Made by a program: the position numbers and the translations under genes. Below, in pieces: positions 5,386 to 59,781 of a DNA stretch of 64,000 nucleotides (position 1 is the stretch's first letter; every line of letters starts with the position of its first letter). This DNA is from a phage. The notes under the pieces are model-generated. The model made no database searches and was not told the origin of the DNA. It saw only the letters and a list, made by a program, of their open reading frames with translations. The stretch is taken from the sequence record QB031383.1. One strand, given 5' to 3'.

Positions 5386-5386
5386 A

Positions 5387-6070: not shown

Positions 6071-6086
6071 TATAACGGAGGGGAGA

Positions 6087-6650
6087 ATGATTTATTATAT
6101 TACTCCCTATCTGACAGGAAATATCGGCAAGGCTATCAATGAAGCTATTGCCGTTCTTCCAGATGATAGTTGGGTGTGTTTAAGAGATACCGATACAATG
6201 TTCCTCCTACCTGATCAACCATCTATGCTTGAAGAGCTTGTTATGTCAAACCCGCCTTTTGATGTAATAGGTGCAACTTGTAACAGGTTAGGCAGTGGTT
6301 ATCAGCTTTTCTCTAACCAAATTAACGATGATCCAGATATTCTAAACCATATAGAATATGCTAAGATTGCAAGAGAATATCATAAAGTAAATGTTGAAGA
6401 AGTTCCTTTCGGAACACCTCTGGCAGGTTTCTTTTTGCTTTTTAGAAAATCATTGTGGAATGAAATTCCTTTCGAAGAAAAATCTATCCAATTCGACTTA
6501 ATTTTCTCTCGCGCTTTACATGAAAAAGGAAAGAGGTTAGGATTGATGCGGGGAATGTATCTGTTTCACATTTACAGATTAGGTCAAACAAATCCTCAAC
6601 GGTCTATACATCATTTATTACACTGTCATGATCACAGTAAAACTATTTAG
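6087..6650 (+). CDS. putative glycosyltransferase (GT-A-like)
   Basis: 187 aa; DxD-type motif in CLRDTDTMF; GGAGGGGAG RBS. Confidence 0.4.
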   Translation: MIYYITPYLTGNIGKAINEAIAVLPDDSWVCLRDTDTMFLLPDQPSMLEELVMSNPPFDVIGATCNRLGSGYQLFSNQINDDPDILNHIEYAKIAREYHKVNVEEVPFGTPLAGFFLLFRKSLWNEIPFEEKSIQFDLIFSRALHEKGKRLGLMRGMYLFHIYRLGQTNPQRSIHHLLHCHDHSKTI

Positions 6651-6658
6651 GAGAGAAA

Positions 6659-8279: not shown

Positions 8280-8286
8280 GTGAAGT

Positions 8287-9231: not shown

Positions 9232-9509
9232 TGATTAACACTTTTGATTTTGAATACACCACTCGTAACGGGAAAGCTTTAGTCGTGGAGGTGGATTACT
9301 ATTATGAAGAGCCTAACCCGCTTTCTCGTGAAAGTGATTGGGATTACCACGGAGGGCTTTTAATTGACGGTATTCGTTTTTACGAAGGCTCTACAGAAGT
9401 TTTTGAAAAAGATTTAAATGTAACTGTAGCAGAAATTGCTTTCCAATTTAGAAAGCACATGGAAGAACTAGAAGCAGAATATATGATGGAGACTAACGAA
9501 CCATTTTAA
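9231..9509 (+). CDS. hypothetical protein
   Basis: 92 aa ORF, ATG overlaps upstream stop (TAATGA). Confidence 0.45.
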   Translation: MINTFDFEYTTRNGKALVVEVDYYYEEPNPLSRESDWDYHGGLLIDGIRFYEGSTEVFEKDLNVTVAEIAFQFRKHMEELEAEYMMETNEPF

Positions 9510-9521
9510 CAGGAGAACAAA

Positions 9522-11300: not shown

Positions 11301-11320
11301 GGGCTTCGGCCCTTTTATTA
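11299..11320 (+). terminator. rho-independent terminator GGGC-TTCG-GCCC + TTTTATT
   Basis: GC stem with TTCG tetraloop followed by T-run just after the primase-helicase stop. Confidence 0.7.
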
Positions 11321-11330
11321 AAAATACCTG

Positions 11331-11359
11331 TTGACAACTTTACGGAAGGGACTTATACT
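11331..11359 (+). promoter_or_regulatory. sigma70-like promoter (TTGACA-17-TATACT)
   Basis: -35 TTGACA at 11331-11336, -10 TATACT at 11354-11359; followed by RBS and ATG at 11393. Confidence 0.65.
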
Positions 11360-11392
11360 TGTCTCATCAACCAAACAAGAGGAGAAGTAAAA

Positions 11393-11824
11393 ATGCGTAT
11401 GACAATCGATCTGAATGCAAAAATTAAAGCTGCTGGTGCTCTGGGTGCTGGTGTTATTAAACACAAACAAGCGTTGGCATTTGCCATCCCACATATGATT
11501 GTTGAGGATCATCCTGAAGAGTTTGCTGTAAAAGTTGTTGAGAATAATGTCTCTGTTATTGAACATCTTCCAACTGGACGTTCTTACCGTGTTGTTTCTT
11601 CTAAAGGTTTCCGTTTCGATGTAAGCCCTTCTTTCACAAAAGGTGCTGGTCGTAGTAAAGTGGGTATTCTTTCTTACAAATATTATATCGATAAAGTTGC
11701 AGATGGTGTTGCATTCTGTCGTGTAAGTGAAGGTAAAGTAGATATCATCTTTAAAAATACCAAAAACATGGTTATTTCTGACGATGGTAAAGTTGACCTC
11801 ACTATTGAGTTCGCTAACAACTAA
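11393..11824 (+). CDS. hypothetical protein (own promoter, strong RBS)
   Basis: 143 aa ORF, AGAGGAGAAG RBS. Confidence 0.5.
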   Translation: MRMTIDLNAKIKAAGALGAGVIKHKQALAFAIPHMIVEDHPEEFAVKVVENNVSVIEHLPTGRSYRVVSSKGFRFDVSPSFTKGAGRSKVGILSYKYYIDKVADGVAFCRVSEGKVDIIFKNTKNMVISDDGKVDLTIEFANN

Positions 11825-11833
11825 GGAGGACTA

Positions 11834-12628
11834 TTGAGCAAGTTGAACACACTTGATCAATATTACACTAACCCCGCTTATGCGGGGTTCTTATGTGATA
11901 AGATCAAAGAAATTTTTGGAGAGGAAGCTAACTACGTAGAACCATCTGCGGGAGAAGGGGCTTTCTCTTCTTGTTTTAAAAACATAACTTCTTTTGATAT
12001 TGACCCTAAGTTTGAAGATTGTATTGAAGCAGATTTTTTAGCTCAATCTGTTGAGTCTGTTGGTAGTGTAACTGCTTTTGTCGGTAATCCTCCATTTGGA
12101 AAAAATGCTAGTCTTGCCATTAAATTCTTTAACCATTGTGCTGAAATGCTGGATAACGAAGGTGGTATTTGTTTTATCTTGCCTCGCACATTTCAAAAAA
12201 TCTTTTTTGCACACAAACTAAATCCCCATATGCATCTTTTTTACGAAGAAGAATGTCCAAAAGGATCTTTTATTCTTCATGGAGAACCTTGGGATGTTCC
12301 TTGTGTATTCCAGATATGGATTAAACGCAACGAGAAGCGTTCTCCCGTTGTTTTAGGAGAGAATCGACTATTCGTATTAGGTAACAGTAAAGACTACGAT
12401 ATAGCCGTTAGGAGAGCGGGAGCAAGTGCAGGTAAAGTGTTATCAGAAGAAGATTCTTTATCTGAAGCATCTACCTATTTTTTAAAAGCCTTGACTTCTG
12501 ATCTTAAAACGCGTATCATTGAGGCTTACCCGTTACTTAAAGCTGAAGCTAGTAAAACTGCGGGAGTAAGAAGTTTAAGTTTAAAAGAACTTCAGTGGGT
12601 TCTGGAGAACATTAGAAAGGAGGAATAG
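11834..12628 (+). CDS. DNA methyltransferase (probable N6-adenine class; motif I before motif IV)
   Basis: TTG start after AGGAGGA; SAM-binding motif I EPSAGEGAF and catalytic motif IV NPPFG. Confidence 0.6.
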   Translation: MSKLNTLDQYYTNPAYAGFLCDKIKEIFGEEANYVEPSAGEGAFSSCFKNITSFDIDPKFEDCIEADFLAQSVESVGSVTAFVGNPPFGKNASLAIKFFNHCAEMLDNEGGICFILPRTFQKIFFAHKLNPHMHLFYEEECPKGSFILHGEPWDVPCVFQIWIKRNEKRSPVVLGENRLFVLGNSKDYDIAVRRAGASAGKVLSEEDSLSEASTYFLKALTSDLKTRIIEAYPLLKAEASKTAGVRSLSLKELQWVLENIRKEE

Positions 12629-15225
12629 TGAGTAAGTTTACATGGGATATTGAAGCAAACGGATTGTTGAATAATGACACTATCGATTATTTAGCTAGTC
12701 CTTATCGTCTCAAAGACACATTTCAAATGCACTGTATTGTCTTAGAGAACCATGAAACAGGAGAAATAGTAGCTTTCCACGATGGCCCTAAATACATCTT
12801 TGATGGGCGTCCTTATGAAGAGTCAGATGGTAAATACACATATGTTCTTAAAGAGTATGTGGCGCAAGATTACACACATTTTCAACTAAAAGATTTCCCA
12901 GACTTTATTAATCATGAAGGTTATTTTAAAGATAAGCCTGAATATCTGGTTGAAATGGCTGTGGCTCACAACGGTATCAACTATGACTGGTTGGCTACAA
13001 AACTGTTTTATGGCTTAGATTACAGTGTTAAATATAATACGTGGGGCAAAAATAAGGTAAAACTTATTGACTCCTTGATTTTGAGTAAAGTGTTAAACCC
13101 AGATCGAAAGATTGAAGGCAAATCAGGACATAGCTTGGCAGCACTTTCTCGAAAGGCAGGGGGTGATGTAAAAATAGATTTCCGTAAAGAGATTCCAGAA
13201 GAAGATCGATTTAAGACTTTTGCTGCTGATATGCTTTATTACTGTATCTATGACAACAAAGCCAATACGAGCGTATATAATTACCTTATGGAAGAATGGG
13301 GTGATTATGATAAATGGGAAGGTCCATTTGAACTTGAACAACGTGTAGCAGACATTATTACACGCCAGGAACACCGTGGGTTTGCTTTTAACATGAAGCA
13401 AGCAGAAGAGAACCTTGCTTTTTTGGATGCAGAAATGGAGCGTCTTCGTTTACTCGTTGAGCCTATTTTGCCACCTAAACCAGCAACAAAAGGTTATCTT
13501 AAGGCTTTTATTCCACCTAAGTTGCAAATTAAAAAGAACTTAGAGCCAACTAACCATATGATCAATTTTGCTAAGAAACATGATGGTCATTTGGAAGAGA
13601 GGGATGGCGATTGGTGGTTAGTTATGTTGGGGAAAGAGTGGAAACTGCCAGTTGCAGCAGATGAGCCTCTATGTGATCCTAACATTCCTGCAACATTGAA
13701 CGATACAACCCATATTAAAAACTGGCTTGTAGGATTAGGTTGGGTACCGTCTGAATATAAAGATAAAGACTTGACTCTTAAATCTGGCACCAAGATTAAA
13801 AAGAGCGAGGAAGAACTTCAGAAAGGTATTCGAGCTTACGTTGAGCAAACTCTATCTTCTAATTTTTGTCAGGATCGTTGTGATCATCTGGAGTGCACAC
13901 CGGAAACCTTGGAAAGGAAGATTCAAGAGCGTATAGCAAAAGGTAAAGGTCGCGGTCTTAAAGTATTGACTAACCCGTGTTTTACCAAAGGTCAGGAAAA
14001 AGAAATTTGTCCTAACCTGCAAGCTTTGGGTGAGAAGTTTCCTTATGCTACACAGATTGTAGAATACTTAACGTATAAGCATCGTAGGAACTCTATTTTA
14101 GGTGGCGGTGCTGATTGGGAAGAAGATGAAGAAGATCAAGAATACGATAAAGGTTTCTTAGCCGCAGTAAGGGCTGATGGGCGTATTCCTACCCCAGCCG
14201 CTACATGTGATGCTGCAACCTCTCGTATGAAGCATAGATCTGTAGCTAATATTCCTCGTGTCACATCTTTGTTTGGATGGGAGATGCGTAACTTGTTTGG
14301 TGTAGAGGTTCCTAAATACTTCCAGATCGGCTACGACTTCGACTCTTTGGAAGCAAAAATTGAATCACACTACTGTTGGCGGTACGAGCCGGAGCCACAC
14401 GAATATTGTAACGCTCTGTTGTTAGAGAAACCTAACGATGTTCACACAATGATGGCAAAACGTATCACTGAAACTATTGGACGTAAATTTGAACGTAGTC
14501 CTGCTAAATCTGTTAAGTATGGTATTACCTATGGTGCACAAGCCGACAAGGTTGCTAAAACAATTGGTAGCGATAAGTTTACAGGTCAATTGGTGTTTGA
14601 TGCTTTCTGGGAAGCTGCATTCCCATTGGCGCGTCTTAAAGAACGTTTAAACGATTTTTGGGTTAAGACTGGTAAACAATATGTTTTGGGTATTGACGGT
14701 CGTAAGGTTCCTACTCGTTCTGCTCACGCGATTCTTAACTCTCTGTTCCAAAGTGGTGGGGTTATCTGTGCTAAACGTGCAATGGTTATTTATGACGACA
14801 TGATCGAAGAAGAAGGACTAAGTGTTGACTTCTTTAAAGATGACTGGAAGAATAAAGATTTCGTGCAACAAATGATTGCATATCACGATGAAGCCCAGCT
14901 TGAAGTTTCTCGTAACCTTGTAGAATTTAAATGGTTTTCACCTGAATCATTAGGTTGGAAGAAAGTAGACGATCCTGAAGAACAAAAGAAAATTGATAAA
15001 GAATGCCTTGCTAAAGTCGAAGAATGGAAGCATAATAAGGAAAAAGAGACAGGGCAAATTTGGGCTAACATTCATGAATCTCCCAAAGGTGGATGGTTTA
15101 CAGCCTATAGTCGGGCAGGTGAACTTGCTGCTTTAGCTGTTACTAAGGCTGGAGAATTTTACAATCTTAACGTTCAGCTTACTGCCGGATATGATGTGGG
15201 TAATTCCTGGGCCACATGTCACTAA
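12628..15225 (+). CDS. DNA polymerase, family A, with N-terminal 3'-5' exonuclease
   Basis: GTG start; Exo I motif WDIEANG; Pol I-type motifs: motif B-like KSVKYGITYGAQ, motif C AYHDEAQLEV. Confidence 0.85.
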   Translation: MSKFTWDIEANGLLNNDTIDYLASPYRLKDTFQMHCIVLENHETGEIVAFHDGPKYIFDGRPYEESDGKYTYVLKEYVAQDYTHFQLKDFPDFINHEGYFKDKPEYLVEMAVAHNGINYDWLATKLFYGLDYSVKYNTWGKNKVKLIDSLILSKVLNPDRKIEGKSGHSLAALSRKAGGDVKIDFRKEIPEEDRFKTFAADMLYYCIYDNKANTSVYNYLMEEWGDYDKWEGPFELEQRVADIITRQEHRGFAFNMKQAEENLAFLDAEMERLRLLVEPILPPKPATKGYLKAFIPPKLQIKKNLEPTNHMINFAKKHDGHLEERDGDWWLVMLGKEWKLPVAADEPLCDPNIPATLNDTTHIKNWLVGLGWVPSEYKDKDLTLKSGTKIKKSEEELQKGIRAYVEQTLSSNFCQDRCDHLECTPETLERKIQERIAKGKGRGLKVLTNPCFTKGQEKEICPNLQALGEKFPYATQIVEYLTYKHRRNSILGGGADWEEDEEDQEYDKGFLAAVRADGRIPTPAATCDAATSRMKHRSVANIPRVTSLFGWEMRNLFGVEVPKYFQIGYDFDSLEAKIESHYCWRYEPEPHEYCNALLLEKPNDVHTMMAKRITETIGRKFERSPAKSVKYGITYGAQADKVAKTIGSDKFTGQLVFDAFWEAAFPLARLKERLNDFWVKTGKQYVLGIDGRKVPTRSAHAILNSLFQSGGVICAKRAMVIYDDMIEEEGLSVDFFKDDWKNKDFVQQMIAYHDEAQLEVSRNLVEFKWFSPESLGWKKVDDPEEQKKIDKECLAKVEEWKHNKEKETGQIWANIHESPKGGWFTAYSRAGELAALAVTKAGEFYNLNVQLTAGYDVGNSWATCH

Positions 15226-15242
15226 TTAACTCATTGTTTTAT

Positions 15243-15263
15243 AAGGGGCTTCTGCCCCTTTAT
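15243..15263 (+). terminator. stem-loop AGGGGC-TTCT-GCCCCT after the DNA polymerase gene
   Basis: 6-bp GC stem followed by TTTAT; directly downstream of the stop. Confidence 0.5.
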
Positions 15264-15273
15264 AGGAGGAGAT

Positions 15274-15465
15274 ATGCATTACGATTTAGATTGTCTTGGT
15301 ATGCCTTACCTACCAGATGAATTTGAAGGTGAAGAAGAACGTGAATGGGACGATGGGGATATCCGTTGTTGGTCTTGTGGTAAAGATATGTCTTATGAAC
15401 AACATATGCACAATGATGGTTTCTGCATACATTGTTACAATGAAATTGATCTGGAGGAAGATTAA
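15274..15465 (+). CDS. hypothetical Zn-ribbon protein
   Basis: 63 aa, AGGAGGAG RBS; CWSCG...CIHCY. Confidence 0.4.
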   Translation: MHYDLDCLGMPYLPDEFEGEEEREWDDGDIRCWSCGKDMSYEQHMHNDGFCIHCYNEIDLEED

Positions 15466-15632
15466 TGGGAAATGGTATCATGATTTGCTATAAAATTGTG
15501 CGTATTGTCGGAGACGAAGTTACCACTCGGTATTTTATGATAGAGTCTCAAGCCGATGAGGTTTACAATGACTGGCTTGAAAAAGGTGGATACGATTTTG
15601 TATCTAAAGAAACTTTCCGTTTAGAAGTATAA
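15465..15632 (+). CDS. hypothetical small protein
   Basis: 55 aa ORF not in track; ATG overlaps upstream stop (TAATGG). Confidence 0.3.
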   Translation: MGNGIMICYKIVRIVGDEVTTRYFMIESQADEVYNDWLEKGGYDFVSKETFRLEV

Positions 15633-15642
15633 GGAGAAAACA

Positions 15643-15861
15643 ATGCGTAAATTAGTGAGCTTTAATGTTTCAATTCTTGTTGATGAACAAAATGAAGATG
15701 TTATTAAAGGTCTTGCAAATAAGATTGCAGGTGGAATGACGGAAGCTGAAGTGTGGGAAGAATGTGCTCGACTTTATGAGGAAGGTGTTATTGAGGTCTT
15801 GGGGGATGAGATTAATATGGACGATGTTGTAAAAGTAACTGTGGAGCGTATCAATGACTAA
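15643..15861 (+). CDS. hypothetical protein
   Basis: 72 aa ORF; AAGGAGAAAACA RBS. Confidence 0.45.
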   Translation: MRKLVSFNVSILVDEQNEDVIKGLANKIAGGMTEAEVWEECARLYEEGVIEVLGDEINMDDVVKVTVERIND

Positions 15862-16447
15862 ATCAAAACAAATCAATATTGCCAAAGAAATTCTTACCGT
15901 ATTAAAGATCGCTGATCCTAATTCTGTCTTGGCTGGCGGTGCTGTTCGTGATTGGCGTATTCTTGATATTGCTGGACGTGATCTGGATTTCTATACGTCC
16001 CTTCCTGCACATCGGACTGAAGAACAAATACAAGGATTAATTGCATCTGCTTTAATGGGAACCAATATTCGTAAACTAGGAAACAAAGAGGCTTCTGACA
16101 ATTATGAAGGTGTTACTGGTCTTAAACACGTTTTTGAGTTTGAACGTGATGGTCAGCTTTGCAACCTTATGATTATGGAACCAAGCGTAATGACAACCTT
16201 TCTAAATGAGTTCGATCTGTCCATCTGCCAGGCTGCATTTGATGGGAAGGATTGTTATTATTCTAAAGATTTTGAAACAACCTTGGAAACAGGGATCTGC
16301 TTCTTGCACAAAGACGTTAGAGAAGATGCCAAACACGTTATTAAAATTGCTACACGTTTCCCATATCTTCGTTTTGTGAAAGAGGTTAAGGTTCCACGTC
16401 CACCTCAAGTAGATACCAGATTGGAAGAAGATGATATTCCTTGGTAA
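15854..16447 (+). CDS. small nucleotidyltransferase with CCA-adding-enzyme-like head motif and acidic C-terminal tail
   Basis: 197 aa; Pol-beta NTase signature LAGGAVRD...DLDF as in tRNA nucleotidyltransferases; C-terminus EEDDIPW resembles SSB tips. Confidence 0.5.
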   Translation: MTKSKQINIAKEILTVLKIADPNSVLAGGAVRDWRILDIAGRDLDFYTSLPAHRTEEQIQGLIASALMGTNIRKLGNKEASDNYEGVTGLKHVFEFERDGQLCNLMIMEPSVMTTFLNEFDLSICQAAFDGKDCYYSKDFETTLETGICFLHKDVREDAKHVIKIATRFPYLRFVKEVKVPRPPQVDTRLEEDDIPW

Positions 16448-16454
16448 TTAAAGC

Positions 16455-16484
16455 TTGACAATATTAAACATTTTATGATAGGAT
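16455..16484 (+). promoter_or_regulatory. promoter-like element (TTGACA, -10-like TAGGAT) upstream of the 16493 gene
   Basis: TTGACA at 16455-16460; TATGA/TAGGAT block resembles the -10 region of the tRNA-array promoter motif. Confidence 0.4.
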
Positions 16485-16492
16485 AGCATTCA

Positions 16493-16885
16493 ATGACTGA
16501 ACGTTCTAAGATAGCTGTTGAAACTGTTTATGGAAACTATACCAGTTTGACACTAGTTGAGAAAAATGTTGTAGGTCTTGACAACTCTTTTTATTTTCAA
16601 ATTTTGGTTATTCAAGGTGGAAACAAGAAGCTAACTGCTCGTGTTGAAAAATCTGAAATAATTGAAACCACTGTTACAAACAAAGAATTCATTTCACTGC
16701 AAGATACAATCCGAAACGTTATAGACGAAGAAGGCAAAGCTGCCACAATTAAACTCGGAGGTTTCCCAGTGCAAATAGTTCATTTTCCTAATGGTGAAAT
16801 TGGAGTTGGAATAGGTAAAGGTAAATACCTGTTAGAGCAAGATGATATGGAAAGACTCCGTTCTTTCTGTGCAAAATTAATGTAA
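16493..16885 (+). CDS. hypothetical protein
   Basis: 130 aa ORF; start lies very close to the predicted promoter (short or no leader). Confidence 0.45.
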   Translation: MTERSKIAVETVYGNYTSLTLVEKNVVGLDNSFYFQILVIQGGNKKLTARVEKSEIIETTVTNKEFISLQDTIRNVIDEEGKAATIKLGGFPVQIVHFPNGEIGVGIGKGKYLLEQDDMERLRSFCAKLM

Positions 16886-16901
16886 TGTAGAGGAGATAAT
16901 A

Positions 16902-17789
16902 ATGTCCGTAATTAATACTGAAACTGATCGTAAAGGCAAAACCGTAACTTATGCAACTGGTATCGTAGACTACGTTAAACTGGATAAATTCGCTGAACCT
17001 AAAACTTTTCATTGGGAAGGAAAAACGATTGTTTCAACTCACCGAGCTTCTCTTGTTCTGAAAGAGAAAGGTGCTAAACCAGATGAGAAAGGTGTTTGGA
17101 TTTCTCTTGGTGACATTGAACTGAAAGAAGGTTATGAAAACCTGCAAGTCAAAGAAGGTGATAATTGGATCACTATTGAAAAAGGTGTAGAAGTAAGTAT
17201 TGATATTGATCGCGTTGATAATAAAGGCGGTAAAACTTACTACAATACTAAAAAATCTCGTATTACAGTATTGTCTACCGATGGTGTTCAGAAGTCTAAC
17301 AAATCTTCTGGCAATAAAGGTTCCAACGATGCTGCTCCTAAGCAATCCTATAAAAAACGTGATACTGTAGGTCTGGAAACTGGTCACGCAGTAAATGGTG
17401 CACTGGAACTGATTCGTAATGGTGTTAAAGGCGATGCTTTCGATATCGCTGGGGTTGTTCAATCTGCAACTGTCACGCTGAAATCGGAAATTGCTGAATC
17501 TCGTGGCGTTGATATTAATGATTATGATCTTGGGGCATCTGTTGGTCACGCTATTCTTAATGCTTGTAAAGACCATACCATTAAGACTGTATCTGTAGAA
17601 GATCTGATTGACTCTGCTCGTAAAGTTCTAGCTCTGTCTGATAAAGTTGCTGCTGCCATTCGTGGTTCCGCAGAACAACCTAAGAAAGAAGAGAAGAAAG
17701 AAGTTAAAAAGCCTGAACCACAACCAGAACCAACTCCAAGCAATCAAGAAGAACCTCCAATGGACTTCGATGATGATATTCCATTCTGA
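16902..17789 (+). CDS. ssb: single-stranded DNA-binding protein
   Basis: 295 aa; C-terminal acidic tip MDFDDDIPF identical in style to bacterial/phage SSB tails; GGAGA RBS. Confidence 0.6.
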   Translation: MSVINTETDRKGKTVTYATGIVDYVKLDKFAEPKTFHWEGKTIVSTHRASLVLKEKGAKPDEKGVWISLGDIELKEGYENLQVKEGDNWITIEKGVEVSIDIDRVDNKGGKTYYNTKKSRITVLSTDGVQKSNKSSGNKGSNDAAPKQSYKKRDTVGLETGHAVNGALELIRNGVKGDAFDIAGVVQSATVTLKSEIAESRGVDINDYDLGASVGHAILNACKDHTIKTVSVEDLIDSARKVLALSDKVAAAIRGSAEQPKKEEKKEVKKPEPQPEPTPSNQEEPPMDFDDDIPF

Positions 17790-44118: not shown

Positions 44119-45492
44119 TTAGTTTGCAGTACGGTTAGTCAGGACGTTGACCTGAACTTTAACGTAATGGAAGAAGCCAGCGTAAACATATTCAATCTTC
44201 ATCCCATCGACCAGACGAGCATTGATTTGCGCATCAGTCATATCGGCACGAGAAGGAATATAAACAATAGGTTTCAGATCGACACGCAAACCAGTCTCTT
44301 CAGAAGTAACAACTTCATTAGCGATGGAACCGTTGAGGATACCTACTTGGATCGGGTTAGCCAGAACAGCTTGTCGAATCAAAGCCAGACCGTTTGAAGT
44401 AGCACGAACACCGCCACCCAGCATAGACTGTTGTTTAAACAGTGTAAACAGTGATTCTTCTGTGCGAGCTTTAAACCACAAAGCATGAACAACATAGTCA
44501 ACAAAGAAACCGCTAACCATCAATCCATCACGATAGAACAGAGTTCCATGCTCTTTACGATAGATGTTACCGTTCTGTTGAACAATATTGTTTTCCGAAG
44601 TCTGATCCAGTTTCTCGATCTCTACACCTACCAGTGTTTTACCGTGAAGAGTAGTTAAACCAGGTTGACGAGAACAGATTGCACCAACAACTGCTGCTTC
44701 TGGGAATACAGAATCTGCATCGGTCATCCACAAAGCAAAGCAAGTGTTATTATAACCGAGGTCATTCAGTCGTTCCAGAACGTTATCTTCTGCTTTCGTT
44801 TTAATTCCAGGTTCAGAGCTAGAGAAGAAGTAAACTTTATCATTCTCTTCTACCCATGCAGCCAAAGCTAGAACATCTTCTGTTTCATGGGAATCTGAAA
44901 GGGTCCAGAACCAGCTACTATCAATATCATGCAGAGCAGCAATATCTTCCGTAATAGCATTAGCATAGACAGTTTCTTGAGTGAAACCTGTGCTGTCAAT
45001 AGAACCAAACTTACCTTCTACTGGAGTGAAAGTCATTGCAGCGCCGTTGTTAGCTACTGTAAACAGTGGGCCATAAACGAGATCTGCATTGATCATTTCA
45101 GTCAGACCAACTACAATCTCTTGTGCAGTTGCAGTGTCATCAGCAATGAATTTAAATTCTTTTTTCTTGGTACCATTTTTGATGGTAATTGTGTAAGTTG
45201 CACTATCTTCTACGATTGGAGTTAGAGTAAAGTTTGTAACTTCACGCTTACCAACCATAACTTGATCTGGTGGGAACAAACCGTTGAACAGTTTGACTGC
45301 CATAATATACGCTGGATCATTTAATCCATAACCTGCTTCCAAAAGTGCATCGGAAGAAGAGTAATATTGAATCGCTTCGCCAGTTACGTTCTGACCTGTA
45401 AGGATCAGGGGAATATCGAACTGGGTTTCACGAATTGATGTAGCACCATACAGTAAAGTTACGGTTGCTACCTTTTCACGAAAAGTTGCCAT
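44119..45492 (-). CDS. tail sheath protein
   Basis: 457 aa; size and position (before tube, chaperones, tape measure) as in contractile tails. Confidence 0.55.
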   Translation of the reverse strand: MATFREKVATVTLLYGATSIRETQFDIPLILTGQNVTGEAIQYYSSSDALLEAGYGLNDPAYIMAVKLFNGLFPPDQVMVGKREVTNFTLTPIVEDSATYTITIKNGTKKKEFKFIADDTATAQEIVVGLTEMINADLVYGPLFTVANNGAAMTFTPVEGKFGSIDSTGFTQETVYANAITEDIAALHDIDSSWFWTLSDSHETEDVLALAAWVEENDKVYFFSSSEPGIKTKAEDNVLERLNDLGYNNTCFALWMTDADSVFPEAAVVGAICSRQPGLTTLHGKTLVGVEIEKLDQTSENNIVQQNGNIYRKEHGTLFYRDGLMVSGFFVDYVVHALWFKARTEESLFTLFKQQSMLGGGVRATSNGLALIRQAVLANPIQVGILNGSIANEVVTSEETGLRVDLKPIVYIPSRADMTDAQINARLVDGMKIEYVYAGFFHYVKVQVNVLTNRTAN

Positions 45493-48094: not shown

Positions 48095-49096
48095 TTAAGC
48101 CGTAGTCAGTTTAACTACCAGTTCTGGACGGGTGTTAACTGCGAGCAGAGAGAATTCAGACTGAAGCTGAATAGTGCGGTGCTGGCTGATCATGAAGGTA
48201 TACAGTTCACGAGCCTGGGTGTTAGCCAGTTCTGGAGTATCCGCAGGAGCGTAGTGCGCCTGGAACATACCTTCGATACCCATAGGCAGAACATATGCTT
48301 CACCAGCAGGGATGTTACCGTGGATATCTTCAATGTAAGTTACACCGTTCCATTCGAACACCTGAACATCCATGTTACCGCTAAGGCGGTCACGCAGAAG
48401 GTTAGGAGTTCCCTGGAAATACTGATATGCCTGGCGAACAAATGGAGAGTTAACCAGAGATGCGAAAAATTCACGAGAACACAGAGCTACGATACGAGTA
48501 GCGGTAGAGCCATCTTGTTTAGTATCGATGATGTAAGCACGAGCTTCTTTCTCGATAGTGGCTGCTGGAGAAACAGTGGTAGAAGCAAAGTCTACAGCAA
48601 CAGATTTCTGGGTAGCACCCCATTCGGTATACCAGTTGTATGCAGAGTTAGCTGCACCACCTACGCCGTTATAGGCACGACCCATAACTGCTTCTGCAAA
48701 GATTTTCTCTTTGGTTTTTGCTACGTCACGCAGAATCTGGGACATATAGCGGTTAACAACTTCAGCGTCTGTGCGCAGAGAGTCATTGATTCCTGCCATT
48801 GCAAAGCTACGGAAAGATTGAATATCTTGAGCTTTGATGTTTTTATCCAGAGGGAAGAACGGAATGCGGAACGCTTTCAGTTCTGGATTTTTCATGCTCA
48901 GGAAGTTACGCTCACCACCACGCTCACGAGCGGAGATCAGAGCATCTTCAGCTTTTTCTTTACCGATTTCAATAGCGGTAGTTGAATGATAGTCAACACT
49001 GAACAGATTCAGGCTGGCAATCAGTGTATCAGGGGAATCCTGAAGTTCGATCATAGGGCTGAAATCTACAACCTGATCTAAAATTACTGCTGGCAT
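48095..49096 (-). CDS. major capsid protein (lambda gpE-like family)
   Basis: 333 aa; C-terminal NTQAR block and length match the E-type capsid family; preceded by a small decoration-like gene. Confidence 0.6.
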   Translation of the reverse strand: MPAVILDQVVDFSPMIELQDSPDTLIASLNLFSVDYHSTTAIEIGKEKAEDALISARERGGERNFLSMKNPELKAFRIPFFPLDKNIKAQDIQSFRSFAMAGINDSLRTDAEVVNRYMSQILRDVAKTKEKIFAEAVMGRAYNGVGGAANSAYNWYTEWGATQKSVAVDFASTTVSPAATIEKEARAYIIDTKQDGSTATRIVALCSREFFASLVNSPFVRQAYQYFQGTPNLLRDRLSGNMDVQVFEWNGVTYIEDIHGNIPAGEAYVLPMGIEGMFQAHYAPADTPELANTQARELYTFMISQHRTIQLQSEFSLLAVNTRPELVVKLTTA

Positions 49097-55323: not shown

Positions 55324-55606
55324 TGATCGTTTGTTTCTTCTTCTCTAAATCTGCTTTTAATTGTGCATTGTTTTTAGACAAGTTGTTTATTTGAGTATTT
55401 AATAATGCTCTTTCTTCATCCGCTCTTTTTTGAAGAACATCGAAATCTTGTTTTGCTTTTGCTTGGGCTGCTTGATATACTTGCGTTTGATAGGCAACAC
55501 CATCTTTGTAGCCAGACTCACGTATCTTGTTATAAGCAAACATTCCGGCAAGAATAAGAACAACAATTAAAACAAAACTTAATACAGTTTTAGTCTTTAG
55601 ATTCAT
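55214..55606 (-). CDS. i-spanin (Rz-like)
   Basis: 130 aa; N-terminal TM helix (VLSFVLIVVLILAGMF) followed by coiled-coil periplasmic domain. Confidence 0.55.
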   Translation of the reverse strand: MNLKTKTVLSFVLIVVLILAGMFAYNKIRESGYKDGVAYQTQVYQAAQAKAKQDFDVLQKRADEERALLNTQINNLSKNNAQLKADLEKKKQTINEDTTNYAKTNSGSMSCFAPNDDGLFIINKSFPSSY

Positions 55607-55650
55607 TATCTTCTACTTCCTCATAAAATTTTATTTTAGGAAGAGAAGGG

Positions 55651-55821
55651 GCGTTGTTAACTATCTTCTTCACTTCCATTGGTTGAGCCTCCGCTAGGAT
55701 CTCTTCCCAAGTCTTCTCTGTCATCATAAAGTTCTTCCTCCAAGTTCCAAACCCGTGTGTAATCATTCTTTTTATCTTTATGATAAGAAGAACGGTTAAA
55801 ATCATTTTTAACTACAAAATT
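55651..55821 (-). CDS. hypothetical small protein (alternative overlapping frame 55590-55805 also possible)
   Basis: 56 aa ORF with GAGGAGG RBS; the overlapping 71-aa frame also has a GGAGGAAG RBS, so the true frame is unresolved. Confidence 0.3.
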
Positions 55822-55881
55822 GCGCATATTTTATCCTCCTCATATCTGATCTTATCACAAAATGATATACAATTGCAAGCA

Positions 55882-55918
55882 TTAAAAATAAAAAAGCCCC
55901 TAACCTTTCGGAGAGGGG
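55882..55918 (-). terminator. rho-independent terminator after the 55968-56264 gene
   Basis: Minus strand CCCCUCUCC-GAAA-GGUUAGGGG followed by a long U-run. Confidence 0.6.
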
Positions 55919-55967
55919 TGTTAAAAATAACAAGGAGGAGGGGCAAAGCCCCAAGAGAGGAGAGGGA

Positions 55968-56264
55968 TTAGATTACGATCTTTTTAGGAACGTCATCTGT
56001 ATTCTGCACGGCAGGGGTTTCTTCTTCCATAGCTTCATAATGTTCTTCTAACCATTCTTCTACTTGCTCTTTAATAGCTTTAGCTGCTTGGAAGCGGAGA
56101 GGTTTTGCTGCATCCTTATCATTAACAAGTTCAACAATATATCGCATAGCTTCTAAATAATGCTCTGCAAATAATTCTTTTACACTTGCTTGCGCCGCAT
56201 CCATTGCGTAGATCTGTTGCATTTCGGCTGTTGGTCTTCCACGACCACGTTTTAGTTTAGGCAT
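55968..56264 (-). CDS. hypothetical protein
   Basis: 98 aa; AGGAGGATTT RBS; basic N-terminus KLKRGRGRP. Confidence 0.45.
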   Translation of the reverse strand: MPKLKRGRGRPTAEMQQIYAMDAAQASVKELFAEHYLEAMRYIVELVNDKDAAKPLRFQAAKAIKEQVEEWLEEHYEAMEEETPAVQNTDDVPKKIVI

Positions 56265-56329
56265 AATAAAATCCTCCTAAACTTTATCTTAACATATAAA
56301 AAATAATAAGTCAAGTTTTATTCAATAGA

Positions 56330-56356
56330 TAGCAAAAAGCCTCCAATAAGGAGGCT
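56330..56356 (-). terminator. rho-independent terminator at the downstream end of the tRNA array
   Basis: Minus strand AGCCUCC-UUAUU-GGAGGCU followed by UUUUUGCU. Confidence 0.7.
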
Positions 56357-56471
56357 AATAAATACTGTTAATTTGAAATGCTTTATTATAATTGTGCGTT
56401 AAGGAGTCGCACCCCTCCATCTTAGAAGGAACCAGGCAAGGTCTTCAAAGATACCGCTGGCAAGCGATATT

Positions 56472-56550
56472 TGGAGGCGGGAATCGGATTTGAACCGATG
56501 ATCTCCAGCATATGAAACTGGCGAGGACGACCAGACTCCTCTATCCCGCT
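56472..56550 (-). tRNA. tRNA-Met (anticodon CAT)
   Basis: Hand-folded cloverleaf: T-arm ATCGG-TTCAAAT-CCGAT, anticodon loop TTCATAT, CCA encoded; 1-72 position appears mismatched (A/C). Confidence 0.55.
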
Positions 56551-56552
56551 AT

Positions 56553-56627
56553 TATGTATCCCGTGCTGGATTCGAACCAGCATCACAATAAGCTGTGGAA
56601 CTCTTATCCTGTAAGTCTAACGGGAAA
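56553..56627 (-). ncRNA. tRNA-like element, anticodon arm not resolvable (possible pseudo-tRNA)
   Basis: Canonical T-arm GCTGG-TTCGAAT-CCAGC and 6-bp acceptor, packed between two tRNAs, but no standard D/anticodon arms. Confidence 0.3.
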
Positions 56628-56628
56628 C

Positions 56629-56702
56629 TGGTTGTTTCGACAAGAATCGAACTTGTGTCTCACGATTATCAGTCGTGGGTTCTACCATTGAACTACGAAA
56701 CA
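56629..56702 (-). tRNA. tRNA-Ile (anticodon GAT)
   Basis: Acceptor TGTTTCG/CGAAACA, D-arm GTTC-AATGGTA-GAAC, anticodon stem CACGA/TCGTG with loop CTGATAA, T-loop TTCGATT, CCA encoded. Confidence 0.7.
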
Positions 56703-56708
56703 TTTGAT

Positions 56709-56785
56709 TGGTCGGAATTGCAGGATTCGAACCTGCGACCCTACGCTCCCAAAGCGTATGCTCTACCAAACTGAGCTAAATTCCG
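56709..56785 (-). tRNA. tRNA-Pro (anticodon TGG)
   Basis: Acceptor CGGAATT/AATTCCG, D-arm GCTC-AGTTTGGTA-GAGC, anticodon loop TTTGGGA, T-arm GCAGG-TTCGAAT-CCTGC, CCA encoded. Confidence 0.75.
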
Positions 56786-56790
56786 TTATA

Positions 56791-56866
56791 TGGCTGGTCT
56801 GTCTGGATTTGAACCAAACCTACGACAGTCAAAGTGTCGTGTGCTACCGGACTACACTACAAACCA
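56791..56866 (-). tRNA. tRNA-Gln (anticodon TTG)
   Basis: Acceptor with U1-A72, anticodon stem CGACA/TGTCG with loop CTTTGAC, T-loop TTCAAAT, discriminator G, CCA encoded. Confidence 0.7.
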
Positions 56867-56964
56867 ATAAATCATTTAATGAAGGGCAACCAGAAGAGGT
56901 GTGAGAGAAGGAGAAAACCATGAGTAAAAGAGAAAGTTTTCTGGCAACCCTTTATTAAATAATT

Positions 56965-57038
56965 TGGAGCGTTCTACGAGGATCGAACTCGTGCCGCCGA
57001 CTTGGAAGGACGGAATGCTACCGCTACACCAAGAACGC
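56965..57038 (-). tRNA. tRNA-Gly (anticodon TCC)
   Basis: Acceptor GCGTTCT/AGAACGC, anticodon loop CTTCCAA, T-arm ACGAG-TTCGATC-CTCGT, discriminator U, CCA encoded. Confidence 0.6.
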
Positions 57039-57049
57039 CCTACATCTTT

Positions 57050-57079
57050 ACTATACTACATTTTACTATTGGTTGTCAA
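57050..57079 (-). promoter_or_regulatory. promoter-like element (aCTATTGACAa, -10-like TATAGT) directly upstream of tRNA-Gly
   Basis: Minus strand TTGACA-18-TATAGT; one of four copies of the same -35-containing motif. Confidence 0.5.
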
Positions 57080-57352
57080 TAGTTTTATTGAGCGGGACAG
57101 TGACGAGTATCCCATTGGGTGACTAGCCCTACGTTCGGTAAGCTAACTTAAAATAATACAAAACCAAAGTCAAATATTATTCTTCGTTGCTGTCGATGGG
57201 AGAGCCGCTTCTTCTTTTGCCCCATCCAACCCTACTCCGGTCAAGTTTCAGGTAACTCTTTTTGTGATCAACACAATACTAAGAACACTGTCTTTCGAGC
57301 AGACCTTGTGCACAGGATACGACGATCAATCACAGTGCTCTTAATGTTGTGT

Positions 57353-57427
57353 TGGTGCTCCCACTCTGAATCGAACAGAGATCCACGGATTACAAAACCG
57401 TTGTAATAGCCATTATACTATAGGAGC
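57353..57427 (-). tRNA. tRNA-Thr (anticodon TGT)
   Basis: Acceptor GCTCCTA/TGGGAGC (one G-U), anticodon loop TTTGTAA, T-arm CTCTG-TTCGATT-CAGAG, CCA encoded. Confidence 0.6.
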
Positions 57428-57433
57428 AAAGCT

Positions 57434-57511
57434 GGGACTCGGCAGGATTCGATACCTGCAATTCCAGAAGCCTCTTGGCGACTGGGGGGTTTACCTTAAC
57501 TCTACAAGTCC
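57434..57511 (-). ncRNA. tRNA-like element with 8-nt T-loop and no recognisable anticodon arm (possible pseudo-tRNA)
   Basis: 7-bp acceptor GGACTTG/CGAGTCC and T-arm GCAGG-TATCGAAT-CCTGC; internal region forms a long imperfect hairpin instead. Confidence 0.3.
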
Positions 57512-57518
57512 ATAATTC

Positions 57519-57604
57519 TGGCGATGAGTATAGGATTTGAACCTATATCGTTCTTTCGAACACGGATTAACAGTCCGCCGCTTAAACCATTCAGCCAACT
57601 CATC
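57519..57604 (-). tRNA. tRNA-Asn (anticodon GTT) with an unusually long variable arm
   Basis: Perfect acceptor GATGAGT/ACTCATC, Asn-type anticodon arm GCGGA-CTGTTAA-TCCGT, discriminator G, CCA encoded; 15-nt variable region GTTC-GAAA-GAAC. Confidence 0.55.
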
Positions 57605-57610
57605 TTAATT

Positions 57611-57698
57611 TGGTGGTGAGTGATGGAGTCGAACCACCCGAATCGCAATGATAACAGATTTACAGTCTGCCCCGCTACCCCTACGGAATTAACTCACC
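57611..57698 (-). tRNA. tRNA-Tyr (anticodon GTA), type II
   Basis: Acceptor GGTGAGT/ACTCACC, anticodon arm GCAGA-CTGTAAA-TCTGT, long variable arm, T-loop TTCGACT, CCA encoded. Confidence 0.65.
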
Positions 57699-57828
57699 TA
57701 AATACTAATATTTAAATTCTTTTTAAAATAGCCAGTGTTCACACCACTAACTATGAGTTATCGGTAAAGTGGTTACCGCCACTTGCCGAAGATTTACTCT
57801 GCTAAAGTAAGCTATATTAAAAAGAACT

Positions 57829-57914
57829 TGGCGGTAGATGTAGGACTCGAACCTACACGCCGTTTCCGACTACAGTTTAGCAAACTGTCGTGGCTACCAT
57901 TTCACCAATCTACC
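57829..57914 (-). tRNA. tRNA-Ser (anticodon GCT), type II
   Basis: Acceptor GGTAGAT/ATCTACC, anticodon stem ACAGT/ACTGT with loop TTGCTAA, long variable arm, T-arm GTAGG-TTCGAGT-CCTAC, CCA encoded. Confidence 0.7.
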
Positions 57915-57918
57915 AATC

Positions 57919-58009
57919 TGGCGGAAGGAGGGAGAGTCGAACTCCCAAGGCTCTTTCAAGCTCGGCGGTTTTCAAGACCGTTTTCGTCGCCACGTCGATT
58001 TGCCCTTCC
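57919..58009 (-). tRNA. tRNA-Ser (anticodon TGA), type II
   Basis: Acceptor GGAAGGG/TCCTTCC, anticodon loop CTTGAAA, long variable arm, T-arm GGGAG-TTCGACT-CTCCC, CCA encoded; D-arm atypical. Confidence 0.55.
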
Positions 58010-58018
58010 ATACTTATA

Positions 58019-58047
58019 ATCTAACATAAAATAATGTTAGTTGTCAA
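58019..58047 (-). promoter_or_regulatory. promoter-like element (aCTATTGACAa, -10-like TTAGAT) upstream of tRNA-Ser
   Basis: Minus strand TTGACA-17-TTAGAT; shares the TATG-TTAG block with the 58605 copy. Confidence 0.5.
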
Positions 58048-58243
58048 TAGTTTTTTAAAACATTTTACCATGAATGGTGACTCCACCAACCCCCGTTCTC
58101 AACGAACGGTGCTCTTCGAGCATTTATGTCTTCTAATATAACCGTGGCCTTTGTTTATAATGTCTGACATACTTGCCTCATTCTCTGCCACCATGATCAG
58201 TAGTGGGTTCAAATCACTTGAGCTAATTCATGTTAAAATGTTC

Positions 58244-58318
58244 TGGTGTCTTTACAAGGAATCGAACCTTGACTAAGAGTTTAGAAGACTCCTGTGCTAT
58301 CCATTACACCATAAAGAC
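58244..58318 (-). tRNA. tRNA-Arg (anticodon TCT)
   Basis: Acceptor GTCTTTA/TAAAGAC, D-arm GTGT-AATGGATA-GCAC, anticodon loop CTTCTAA, T-arm CAAGG-TTCGATT-CCTTG, CCA encoded. Confidence 0.7.
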
Positions 58319-58320
58319 GT

Positions 58321-58395
58321 TGGTGGCCCTGGCTGGTTTCGATCCAGCTACCTATCGGTTATGAGCCGACAGCTCTCCCATTGAGCTACAGGGCC
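58321..58395 (-). tRNA. tRNA with CAT anticodon (Met or lysidine-type Ile2)
   Basis: Acceptor GGCCCTG/CAGGGCC, D-arm GCTC-AATGGGA-GAGC, anticodon loop CTCATAA, non-canonical T-loop ATCGAAA, CCA encoded. Confidence 0.6.
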
Positions 58396-58604
58396 ATAAA
58401 TGTGGTAACAGAGACGCTGACGATTGTAGAGAACCGCTACATTCTCTAAGACCAAGCCCAACTTTCAGCGTAAAAGTTCTTGAGCCGAGACTATTCCTTT
58501 TCCTCTTTGGTAGCTAACCTCTGAAGAAGTAGTCTCTAACACTACCGCAGTGCAAGCCCCTCTTAACAAAAGTCAACGACCCTGTTACCACACTTGATGA
58601 ACGT

Positions 58605-58633
58605 ATCCTAACATATGAAGGATACGTTTGTCA
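58605..58633 (-). promoter_or_regulatory. promoter-like element (aCTATTGACAa, -10-like TTAGGA) at the upstream end of the tRNA array
   Basis: Minus strand TTGACA-17-TTAGGA; would transcribe the structured spacer and the tRNAs. Confidence 0.45.
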
Positions 58634-58641
58634 ATAGTTAT

Positions 58642-58890
58642 TTAAGCATATTCTGCTACTTCTTCACTATCTTTCTTTTCCAGAAGAGCAACAACCAAAG
58701 CTTCTGCGTTAAAAGTATTAATTTCAAGATCCATCTCTCGCATCAGAGCCAAGAAATCAATAACTTTAACATCTTTAGTGATTACAATAGAAGTTGTACC
58801 ATTGTTTTCAGATGTGTATTTTTCTGGATGGAAAAGAAAAACTGCATTGCCGTTACCATCTTCAAACACGTGTTTTTCTAATAGAGACAT
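58642..58890 (-). CDS. hypothetical protein
   Basis: Start set at the internal ATG preceded by AGGAGGAAC (82 aa) rather than the longer track ORF. Confidence 0.4.
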   Translation of the reverse strand: MSLLEKHVFEDGNGNAVFLFHPEKYTSENNGTTSIVITKDVKVIDFLALMREMDLEINTFNAEALVVALLEKKDSEEVAEYA

Positions 58891-58898
58891 TGTTCCTC

Positions 58899-59150
58899 CT
58901 AATCTGTTAGTTGTTCGTCCTCTACCAAGTTTGACACGAGAACGTCTGTTATACATTGATGCTGATAAACCCTTTCGGGACTATCATCAAAAGCCAAACC
59001 TGTGCAAATAGAACAGAGGTCTGATTCCTTGATGACTCCATTTTTATCACGTCTGGAGTGGTTTGTCAAATGCCTATTACAAGCACGGCACCTAAAATAA
59101 AAGCTATTTTGCATATATCCTTCGAACCCCAAATGGGGAGTGATCGGCAT
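58899..59150 (-). CDS. hypothetical Zn-finger protein
   Basis: 83 aa; CRACN...CSIC cysteine pairs. Confidence 0.4.
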   Translation of the reverse strand: MPITPHLGFEGYMQNSFYFRCRACNRHLTNHSRRDKNGVIKESDLCSICTGLAFDDSPERVYQHQCITDVLVSNLVEDEQLTD

Positions 59151-59187
59151 CTCCTCACTTCTAGTTTAGCACGAAGGATATCTTAAG

Positions 59188-59373
59188 TCAACTAGGAATA
59201 ATTTTATCCTTTTTGGTTTCATAACCAGTCCAATCTAAATCCTCCCAGCCTTCATCATCGTCTAACACATTGTCATCATCATAAGATGCAATGTTATAAA
59301 TAGAACGTGGATTACAAGACATACAATCTTTAATAGGCACATGATGCCATTTGCACGGATTCTCGCTAATCAT
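59188..59373 (-). CDS. hypothetical small acidic protein
   Basis: 61 aa; GGAGGTG RBS; first gene of the leftward unit leaving the divergent region. Confidence 0.45.
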   Translation of the reverse strand: MISENPCKWHHVPIKDCMSCNPRSIYNIASYDDDNVLDDDEGWEDLDWTGYETKKDKIIPS

Positions 59374-59405
59374 TGCACACCTCCATTCTTGTTAAGATGT
59401 TCCGT

Positions 59406-59434
59406 ACTGTACTTCATACTGATCTATAGATCAA
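59406..59434 (-). promoter_or_regulatory. leftward promoter candidate (TTGATC-17-TACAGT) in the divergent control region
   Basis: Read on the reverse complement; spacer contains the palindrome GATCTATAGATC. Confidence 0.45.
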
Positions 59435-59781
59435 GTATTATTTATAATAATTTATTATTTTATTTTTAATTGATAGAAGTTGATCTGTACGTACCAGTTC
59501 TGATACACTGTACCTGTTTGTTAGATCTAATAATTATTTATTATTAATATTTAATAATTATTAATCTAGTACGGAGTACAGTACTTGAGTACAGAGTACT
59601 ACATCAACAACCTAAAACCTTAACTCGCTGCGCTCGTTAATAGATTTCTAGGGTAGCATACTTCGAACACAAAAGTCAAGAGTTTTATTAAAAATTATTT
59701 TCTGTGTGCAAAAACCTTGCTTAAACAGGTAGCAATAGTATAGCCTATAACATAAGCTTCATAAGAGGCTCGTAGAGCAAG

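Follow-up and report, generated by a model that had tools for sequence, protein, structure and literature searches.

This analysis concerns a tRNA gene cluster at positions 56472 to 58395 of a 64,000-nucleotide (nt) stretch of phage DNA (sequence record QB031383.1; the whole stretch is referred to as the window), in particular its two genes with the anticodon CAT, located at 56472-56550 and 58321-58395. The cluster contains 12 tRNA genes, all on the minus strand and all encoding the 3' CCA (Table 1). ARAGORN recovered 10 of them where an initial annotation of the sequence had placed them, on the same strand and including both CAT anticodons. A search with Rfam RF00005 returned 11 matches above the gathering score (Infernal E-values of 1e-4 to 8e-14). 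The match additional to those of ARAGORN corresponds to the Tyr-GTA gene (57614-57698; 39 bits), for which the minimum-energy fold is not a cloverleaf. The twelfth gene, Ser-TGA, was seen only as a sub-threshold match to the tRNA-Sec model (37.4 bits versus a gathering score of 47); it can be read as a class II cloverleaf with a weak D arm, and its fold is no better than shuffled (z = -0.12). The genes had also been described as tightly packed. Six of the gaps between them measure 2 to 6 nt, but five measure 78 to 314 nt and the tRNAs cover 956 of 1924 nt; therefore, this description is only partly right. ARAGORN detected no conventional elongator tRNA-Met in the window, and an Rfam search at E-values of up to 10 over positions 55500-59500 gave no credible family besides tRNA.

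Table 1. Genes and putative expression signals of the tRNA cluster (positions in the window)
Feature	Position	Strand	Evidence and remarks
Promoter-like TTGACA-18-TAGGAT	58605-58634	-	TG before the -10 hexamer; upstream of the structured leader and Ile2-Arg; upstream of the cluster
tRNA-Ile2-type (CAT)	58321-58395	-	Presumed lysidine, predicted to read AUA; T-loop AUCGAAA (A54, A60); CCA encoded
tRNA-Arg (TCT)	58244-58318	-	Reads AGA; ARAGORN, Rfam
Promoter-like TTGACA-18-TAGATT	58018-58047	-	Upstream of Ser-Ser-Tyr-Asn-Thr; in the 234-nt gap
tRNA-Ser (TGA)	57919-58009	-	Class II, weak D arm; sub-threshold tRNA-Sec model, sequence, fold, tRNAscan-SE annotation of the orthologue
tRNA-Ser (GCT)	57829-57914	-	ARAGORN, Rfam
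tRNA-Tyr (GTA)	57611-57698	-	Class II, divergent D arm; Rfam (39 bits); orthologue annotated tRNA-Tyr
tRNA-Asn (GTT)	57519-57604	-	Long variable arm, class II architecture; ARAGORN, Infernal, fold
tRNA-Thr (TGT)	57353-57427	-	Reads ACA; ARAGORN, Rfam
Promoter-like TTGACA-18-TATAGT	57050-57079	-	11/12 matches; upstream of Gly-Gln-Pro-Ile-Met; in the 314-nt gap
tRNA-Gly (TCC)	56965-57038	-	Reads GGA; ARAGORN, Rfam
tRNA-Gln (TTG)	56791-56866	-	ARAGORN, Rfam
tRNA-Pro (TGG)	56709-56785	-	ARAGORN, Rfam
tRNA-Ile (GAT)	56629-56702	-	ARAGORN, Rfam
Initiator-type tRNA-Met (CAT), predicted	56472-56550	-	A1xC72, U73, G2:C71, C3:G70, G4:C69, A11:U24; arm CCAGU-UUCAUAU-GCUGG
Intrinsic-terminator-like hairpin and T run	56338-56356	-	Follows the last tRNA; terminator annotated at this position in a relative

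As judged by sequence similarity, these tRNA genes belong to a coliphage of the genus Phapecoctavirus (Stephanstirmvirinae): 2.6 kb are 99.8% identical to Escherichia phage ECO340P2, with matches in 295 phage records, mostly from Phapecoctavirus. The Infernal E-values and the conservation in these records show that the cluster is not a chance pattern. The tRNAscan-SE annotation of the relative vB_EcoM_ASO2A (99.1% identity) lists exactly the same twelve anticodons, in line with the count of twelve given initially, and it labels the orthologue of 58321-58395 as tRNA-Ile-CAT and that of 56472-56550 as tRNA-Met-CAT. In Mt1B1_P17, the orthologue of 56472-56550 is called "tRNA-Pseudo-CAT" and the Tyr orthologue "Pseudo-GTA"; the sister-genus phage JohannJBalmer labels the former tRNA-fMet, and most GenBank records label both CAT genes tRNA-Met. 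Because the records of relatives already list the same twelve tRNAs with these labels, the cluster is known at the annotation level, and it is ordinary. Several close relatives carry an insertion of ~90 nt between the Pro and Gln genes (vB_EcoM_ASO2A locus 2086-2180; window 56786-56790), which is absent from the window.

The cluster is routine, and its initiator variant is the more interesting part, with a function that is predicted. The step beyond annotation is that the phage "tRNA-Met" appears to be of the initiator type and to belong to a virus-restricted variant class without the three anticodon-stem G:C pairs of initiators; a literature search for a phage initiator tRNA variant retrieved no description, which is not proof of absence. 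The initial annotation had proposed that one of the CAT tRNAs is an initiator or a lysidine-modified Ile2 tRNA. Sequence comparison points to the presence of both, and the explanation that we consider probable is an ordinary cluster with an Ile2-like tRNA at 58321-58395 and an initiator-like tRNA with a virus-type anticodon arm at 56472-56550. A duplicated tRNA-Met pair was rejected, as each CAT gene is closer to a different E. coli tRNA than to the other CAT gene.

The assignment of 58321-58395 to the tRNA-Ile2 type is supported by its similarity to E. coli ileX (76% pairwise identity, versus 67% for metT and 63% for metY; 76.3%, 61.0%, and 54.5%, respectively, in a multiple alignment). Its acceptor stem (GGCCCUG/CAGGGCC) contains C4:G69 and C5:G68, positions that are major identity elements for E. 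coli TilS (PMC11947777), and the gene-encoded CAU lies inside a CUCAUAA loop with A37. The loop and the two acceptor pairs are common to E. coli tRNA-Ile2 (ileX/ileY), as are C29:G41, G30:C40, and A73. The E. coli tRNA differs in its T-loop (UUCAAGU rather than AUCGAAA) and its longer D loop, and lysidine is presumed in the phage tRNA. Among 5,426 complete E. coli genomes, the best matches reach 83 to 84% identity and are labeled tRNA-Ile by PGAP. The gene also aligns with the CAT-anticodon tRNA-Ile genes of T4 and Aeromonas phage 31, with which it has the GGCCCUG acceptor stem in common; however, identity to the T4 tRNA is only 66%, and A54 in the T-loop belongs to the window gene.

It is very unlikely that 58321-58395 encodes an elongator tRNA-Met instead, as its encoded anticodon, ARAGORN, and most GenBank records would have it. 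In metT, the pairs that the gene has in common with ileX are replaced by U4:A69 and A5:U68, and the gene is less similar to metT than to ileX; tRNAscan-SE and PGAP label the gene and its relatives tRNA-Ile, and both the kinship with the T4 tRNA-Ile and the strong excess of AUA codons in the phage (see below) speak against an elongator. As an Ile2-type tRNA, it would be recognized through C4:G69 and C5:G68 by the host TilS, which would convert C34 into lysidine; IleRS would then charge the tRNA, which would read AUA.

A noncanonical T-loop had been noted in this gene, and both ARAGORN and Infernal resolve it as A54-U55-C56-G57-A58-A59-A60, with A in place of the usual T54. The gene is 95 to 96% identical to the sole tRNA retained by the T4-like phages HX01 and VR7, which show compensatory changes at 30:40 (HX01) and 7:66 (VR7). 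Because the AUCGAAA loop is constant while the stems show such changes, it is maintained rather than decaying, and this combination argues for a working gene. The copy in SP27 has A54 together with U58. In Justusliebigvirus (loci L006, positions 6340-6415, L008, and L010), the T-loop of the upstream CAT tRNA is AUUGUAA (A54, U56, U58); therefore, an aberrant T-loop is a recurrent feature of CAT tRNAs in this group of phages. A54 and A60 also form the T-loop signature of eukaryotic initiators (PMC3950347). This is a resemblance only: unlike eukaryotic initiators, 58321-58395 appears to be of the Ile2 type, with a paired G1:C72 and no evident D-loop partner A20. When the Ile2-Arg end with its structured spacers was considered as a block common to T4-like phages, only 75 to 82 nt of the Ile2 gene matched HX01 and VR7. 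Because only the Ile2-type gene shows such high identity, and because HX01 and VR7 retain hardly any other part of the tRNA cluster of T4, the comparison points to single-gene horizontal exchange of this tRNA between Stephanstirmvirinae and T4-like phages of Mosigvirus and Gaprivervirus.

The assignment of the second CAT gene, 56472-56550, to the initiator type of tRNA-Met is likewise supported by comparison with E. coli tRNAs (identity of 72% to metY, 59% to metT, and 54% to ileX). Features common to the gene and the E. coli initiators (metY/metZWV) are (i) the CAU anticodon, (ii) the lack of a Watson-Crick pair at 1:72, (iii) G2:C71, C3:G70, and G4:C69, within acceptor bases 2 to 6 (GCGGG) that are the same in metY, (iv) A11:U24, and (v) the T-loop UUCAAAU. 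A 1-72 mismatch and a purine-11:pyrimidine-24 pair (R11:Y24) are elements used by the formyltransferase (PMC9976931). The A/C mismatch at 1-72, which had been read from the sequence initially, was reproduced by the ARAGORN drawing, by the "v" marks of Infernal, and by RNAfold, in which base 1 is unpaired and the cloverleaf is the minimum-energy fold. The gene is conserved at 92 to 100% across Phapecoctavirus and Justusliebigvirus, with compensatory changes in the T stem. Positions 1 and 72 are AxC, CxC, or UxC in close relatives and CxU, AxA, or, in one case, a G.U wobble in more distant ones. Because position 1 is A, C, or U opposite a fixed C72 in the close relatives and never G, the pattern fits selection against a 1:72 pair.

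The gene departs from E. coli tRNAfMet at several positions, with AxC rather than CxA at 1:72, a discriminator base U73 rather than A73, an au/GC/ug rather than a GC/GC/GC anticodon stem, and the loop UUCAUAU rather than CUCAUAA. Three anticodon-stem G:C pairs are nearly universal in bacterial initiators. There are, however, natural initiator variants with au/GC/gu, and E. coli can be sustained by an au/GC/gu mutant, with G30 as the crucial base (PMC5389676). As in the initiator variants of mycoplasmas and alphaproteobacteria (au/GC/GC, GC/GC/gu, and au/GC/gu), G30:C40 is kept in 56472-56550 and the first pair is A-U; in contrast to them, the third pair is reversed (U31.G39), the loop contains U32 and U38, and the carriers of the arm variant are viruses of hosts with GC/GC/GC.

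The exact 17-nt anticodon arm of 56472-56550, CCAGUUUCAUAUGCUGG, is also present in IMG/VR and metagenome contigs, in tRNAs with quite different bodies. The arm occurs in 25 distinct tRNAs, of which 21 are unpaired at 1:72 and 4 have A-U, U-A, or U.G at this position; G-C was found in none (0/25). Pairs were counted in an alignment of 22 of the 25. In this alignment, pairing is complete at acceptor pairs 2 to 7 and reaches 93 to 100% in the D and T stems; 12 pairs are altered on both sides, the observed covariation score was reached by 0 of 500 shuffles, and shifting the partner by 1 to 3 columns lowers pairing to 35 to 49%. The initiator elements recur throughout (G2:C71 in 21/22, C3:G70 in 20/22, and R11:Y24 in 20/22), and 1:72 is unpaired in 18/22 and never G-C. 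In arrays with the arm variant, 1:72 is paired in every other scorable CAT tRNA, mostly as G1-C72, and the anticodon arms of these other tRNAs are of the elongator or Ile2 type; a few rows, in which the ARAGORN boundaries were unreliable, were left unscored. The exact arm was absent from 5,426 E. coli genomes; a search of 185,579 species genomes gave three matches, each of them on a metagenome-assembled contig, and two of the three resemble phage tRNA arrays. Viral contigs often carry the canonical initiator arm as well (at least 120 loci, many of which lie at the end of a contig). The arm with A29-U41, U31.G39, U32, and U38 appears to be one fixed variant of a tRNA class almost confined to viral DNA.

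These data bear on three other interpretations of 56472-56550. The gene might be a decaying pseudogene or a decoy outside translation, as suggested by its label in Mt1B1_P17, by an Rfam score (50 bits) below those of all other Rfam matches except Tyr, and by two real tRNA-like remnants within the same cluster. We rejected this interpretation as extremely improbable in view of the conservation, the compensatory changes, and the encoded CCA, to which the cloverleaf fold, the near-consensus promoter match upstream, and the covariation of all stems across the arm-bearing tRNAs can be added. Alternatively, the gene could be a plain elongator tRNA-Met that supplies AUG decoding in elongation and in which the 1:72 mismatch is tolerated noise. 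The CAT anticodon without the three initiator G:C pairs, the tRNA-Met label in most GenBank records, and the lack of another elongator tRNA-Met candidate in the window agree with this. We nevertheless regard an elongator as unlikely, given the bases at 1:72 in both the close relatives and the arm-bearing tRNAs, the greater identity to metY than to metT, and the initiator or formyltransferase elements A11:U24, G2:C71, and C3:G70; moreover, sister phages have a separate, adjacent elongator-like CAT tRNA with a paired 1:72, and ATG codons are not enriched in the phage (see below). Just as improbable is a tRNA-Met with a dual function, which would be formylated in part and take part in initiation as well as in elongation, as in mammalian mitochondria or engineered E. 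coli tRNAfMet mutants. The gene is the sole Met-type gene of Phapecoctavirus, some arm-bearing tRNAs have a weak A-U or U-A at 1:72, and acceptor-stem mutants of tRNAfMet can serve both roles in E. coli (PMC6265465). However, those mutants required a Watson-Crick 1:72 pair or weakened formyltransferase determinants, whereas 56472-56550 combines a true mismatch with intact G2:C71 and C3:G70; moreover, the host elongator tRNA-Met is available to the phage.

Several points weigh against an initiator-like tRNA in an otherwise ordinary cluster. The three G:C pairs at 29:41, 30:40, and 31:39 are not all present, the gene having A29-U41, G30-C40, and U31.G39, and the last of these is a U.G pair where natural au/GC/gu variants have G.U. 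The discriminator is U73 instead of A73, and one GenBank record labels the gene a pseudogene. The identity of the arm across the 25 tRNAs was built into the search. With the looser pattern CCAGN...NCUGG, at least 110 further viral initiator-like tRNAs were found, 84 of them mismatched at 1:72, with many variants of the loop and of 31:39; therefore, the exact 17-nt arm is one of a continuum. To our knowledge, A54 of 58321-58395 has no demonstrated role in bacteria, and every functional step proposed for the two CAT tRNAs is deduced from their sequences.

If 56472-56550 encodes an initiator-like tRNA, MetRS would charge it via the CAU anticodon, and the unpaired 1:72, G2:C71, C3:G70, G4:C69, and A11:U24 would make it a substrate of the host formyltransferase. 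The 1:72 mismatch would keep the tRNA from EF-Tu and peptidyl-tRNA hydrolase, and entry into the P site would proceed through G30:C40, the only pair of the anticodon stem with a demonstrated essential role in E. coli. The customary "two tRNA-Met" labeling of these coliphages, which are in wide therapeutic use, would then be functionally incorrect, as one tRNA would read AUA as isoleucine and the other would be an initiator. In the viral tRNA set, every formylation determinant is kept, two of the three G:C pairs are dropped, and the loop is altered, always alike, in a sequence absent from the host genomes searched. Should 56472-56550 work as an initiator in E. coli, it would be a naturally occurring test of the minimum that the ribosome requires of the three-G:C rule.

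A possible reason for the altered arm is evasion of nucleases. Enteric VapC cleaves host tRNAfMet between A38 and C39 (PMC4105405). Both bases at this bond are changed in 56472-56550 (U38 and G39), and C39 is likewise absent from related tRNAs of T5-like, FelixO1-like, and Aeromonas phages. Evasion of host nucleases through anticodon-loop changes in phage tRNAs has been put forward as an idea (PMC10264068), and escape from a VapC-like nuclease is a tentative explanation for the arm variant. Somewhat more speculative is a virus-restricted initiator class whose arm keeps G30:C40 and drops the VapC-type recognition or cut sequence (A38/C39), such that phage initiation could continue after the host tRNAfMet has been destroyed. 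Another possible effect of the altered arm is less stringent proofreading by IF3, to the advantage of the phage. A further point on the opposing side is that the recognition rules of VapC are not known (PMC10264068); in the same eLife survey, tRNA-fMet was found to be generally avoided by phages. Like the anti-defense tRNAs of phages (e.g., T5 tRNA-Tyr against retron-Eco7 and T5 tRNA-Lys against PARIS), 56472-56550 is phage encoded, lies behind strong promoter matches, and has an anticodon arm that departs from that of the host at a known nuclease cleavage site; unlike for the T5 tRNAs, no defense system is known to be countered by it (PMC11555353, PMC10264068, PMC4105405). If it works as an initiator, the tRNA is also a candidate countermeasure against toxins that cleave initiator tRNA.

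The initial annotation had linked the CAT tRNAs to decoding and proposed a comparison of the codon usage of late genes with that of the host. The counts, taken from long open reading frames (ORFs), agree with this link, although the E. coli reference was a 50-kb sample and not a whole genome, which again counts against our explanation. ATA occurs at 11.0 per 1,000 codons in the phage (GC content, 39.6%), compared with 2.3 in the E. coli sample (4.9-fold). Other codons are likewise more frequent in the phage (ACA, 5.7-fold; AGA, 4.9-fold; GGA, 3.2-fold; AGT, 3.0-fold; AAT, 2.3-fold; and TAT, 2.0-fold), so that the tRNA set as a whole matches codons enriched in the phage; the misfits are ATG (0.78-fold) and ATC (0.55-fold). 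Given the ratio for ATG, codon demand therefore does not explain 56472-56550. According to PHROGs, the structural module occupies 17853-54969 on the minus strand, and the replication genes lie at 151-17789 on the plus strand. ATA reaches 13.7 per 1,000 in the structural (late) module and 5.3 in the replication block, AGA reaches 8.2 in the structural module, and the phage excess of compensated codons is stronger in this module. Two minus-strand genes, those for the tail sheath and the major head protein (44119-45492 and 48095-49096), are free of both ATA and AGA codons. The ten ordinary tRNAs would serve codons used more by the phage, chiefly ACA, AGA, GGA, AAU, and UAU, and most in the structural module; the demand for them is seen in the counts, and their use is presumed.

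The three promoter-like sites in Table 1 are of the form TTGACA-18-TAnnnT and have the context AACTATTGACAA in common. The twelve tRNAs are probably transcribed from these near-consensus sigma-70 promoter matches, with transcription ending at the single terminator-like hairpin, and host enzymes would mature the tRNAs. A promoter scan, however, gave 5 sites versus a mean of 5.2 in shuffled sequences, another result unfavorable to the explanation, and the three sites are distinct only by match quality, shared flanks, and position. As their number is no higher than in shuffled sequence, the transcription step is inferred from match quality and position.

Much of the DNA between the genes is predicted to be structured. 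A leader of 205 nt (58396-58600, minus strand) separates the first promoter match from the Ile2 gene and is predicted to form a very stable fold (-76.8 kcal/mol; z = -5.3), with a long terminal helix that closes directly 5' of the Ile2 tRNA; it had no Rfam match. Three spacers on the minus strand (58050-58243, 57699-57828, and 56867-56964) form long closed hairpins (z = -3.9, -3.9, and -5.7, respectively). These hairpin spacers could be processing signals or stable small RNAs, by analogy with rnaC and rnaD of T4, to which they show no sequence similarity. Two tRNA-like elements (56551-56628 and 57428-57518, minus strand; z = -3.2 and -2.7) have an acceptor stem and a T arm and lack the CCA, the D arm, and a usable anticodon loop. 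They are not recognizable as remnants of particular tRNAs, as no convincing match to any tRNA was found in the compared loci. The element at 57428-57518 is part of a longer segment that can be aligned to Justusliebigvirus (71 to 79%).

The tRNA cluster of T4 (Gln, Leu, Gly, Pro, Ser, Thr, Ile, and Arg) is similar in several respects. Seven of its eight anticodons (i.e., TTG, TCC, TGG, TGA, TGT, CAT, and TCT) also occur here, the genes lie on a single strand with structured non-tRNA RNA between them, and both clusters include a CAT-anticodon tRNA-Ile with the acceptor stem GGCCCUG. In contrast to T4, the cluster in the window lacks Leu-TAA and has additional genes for the initiator-type Met, Ile-GAT, Asn, Tyr, and Ser-GCT.

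The tRNA-Asn (GUU) gene has a class II architecture: its 4-bp variable stem (GUUC/GAAC) is closed by GAAA, its D arm (U8 G9 G10 C11) is Ser-like, and it has G73 and A2:U71, together with an anticodon arm that is identical to that of E. coli asnT over 19 nt. In the sister genus, the variable stem of tRNA-Asn is GAAC/GUUC, so that two pairs differ on both sides; a long-arm tRNA-Asn is likewise present in a third lineage (L060). These features raise the question of whether the tRNA might be charged by SerRS besides AsnRS (identity rules in PMC9976931). Elsewhere in the window, the ORF at 15854-16447 (plus strand) matches PHROG nucleotidyltransferase families (phrog_10174; E-value, 6.5e-63).

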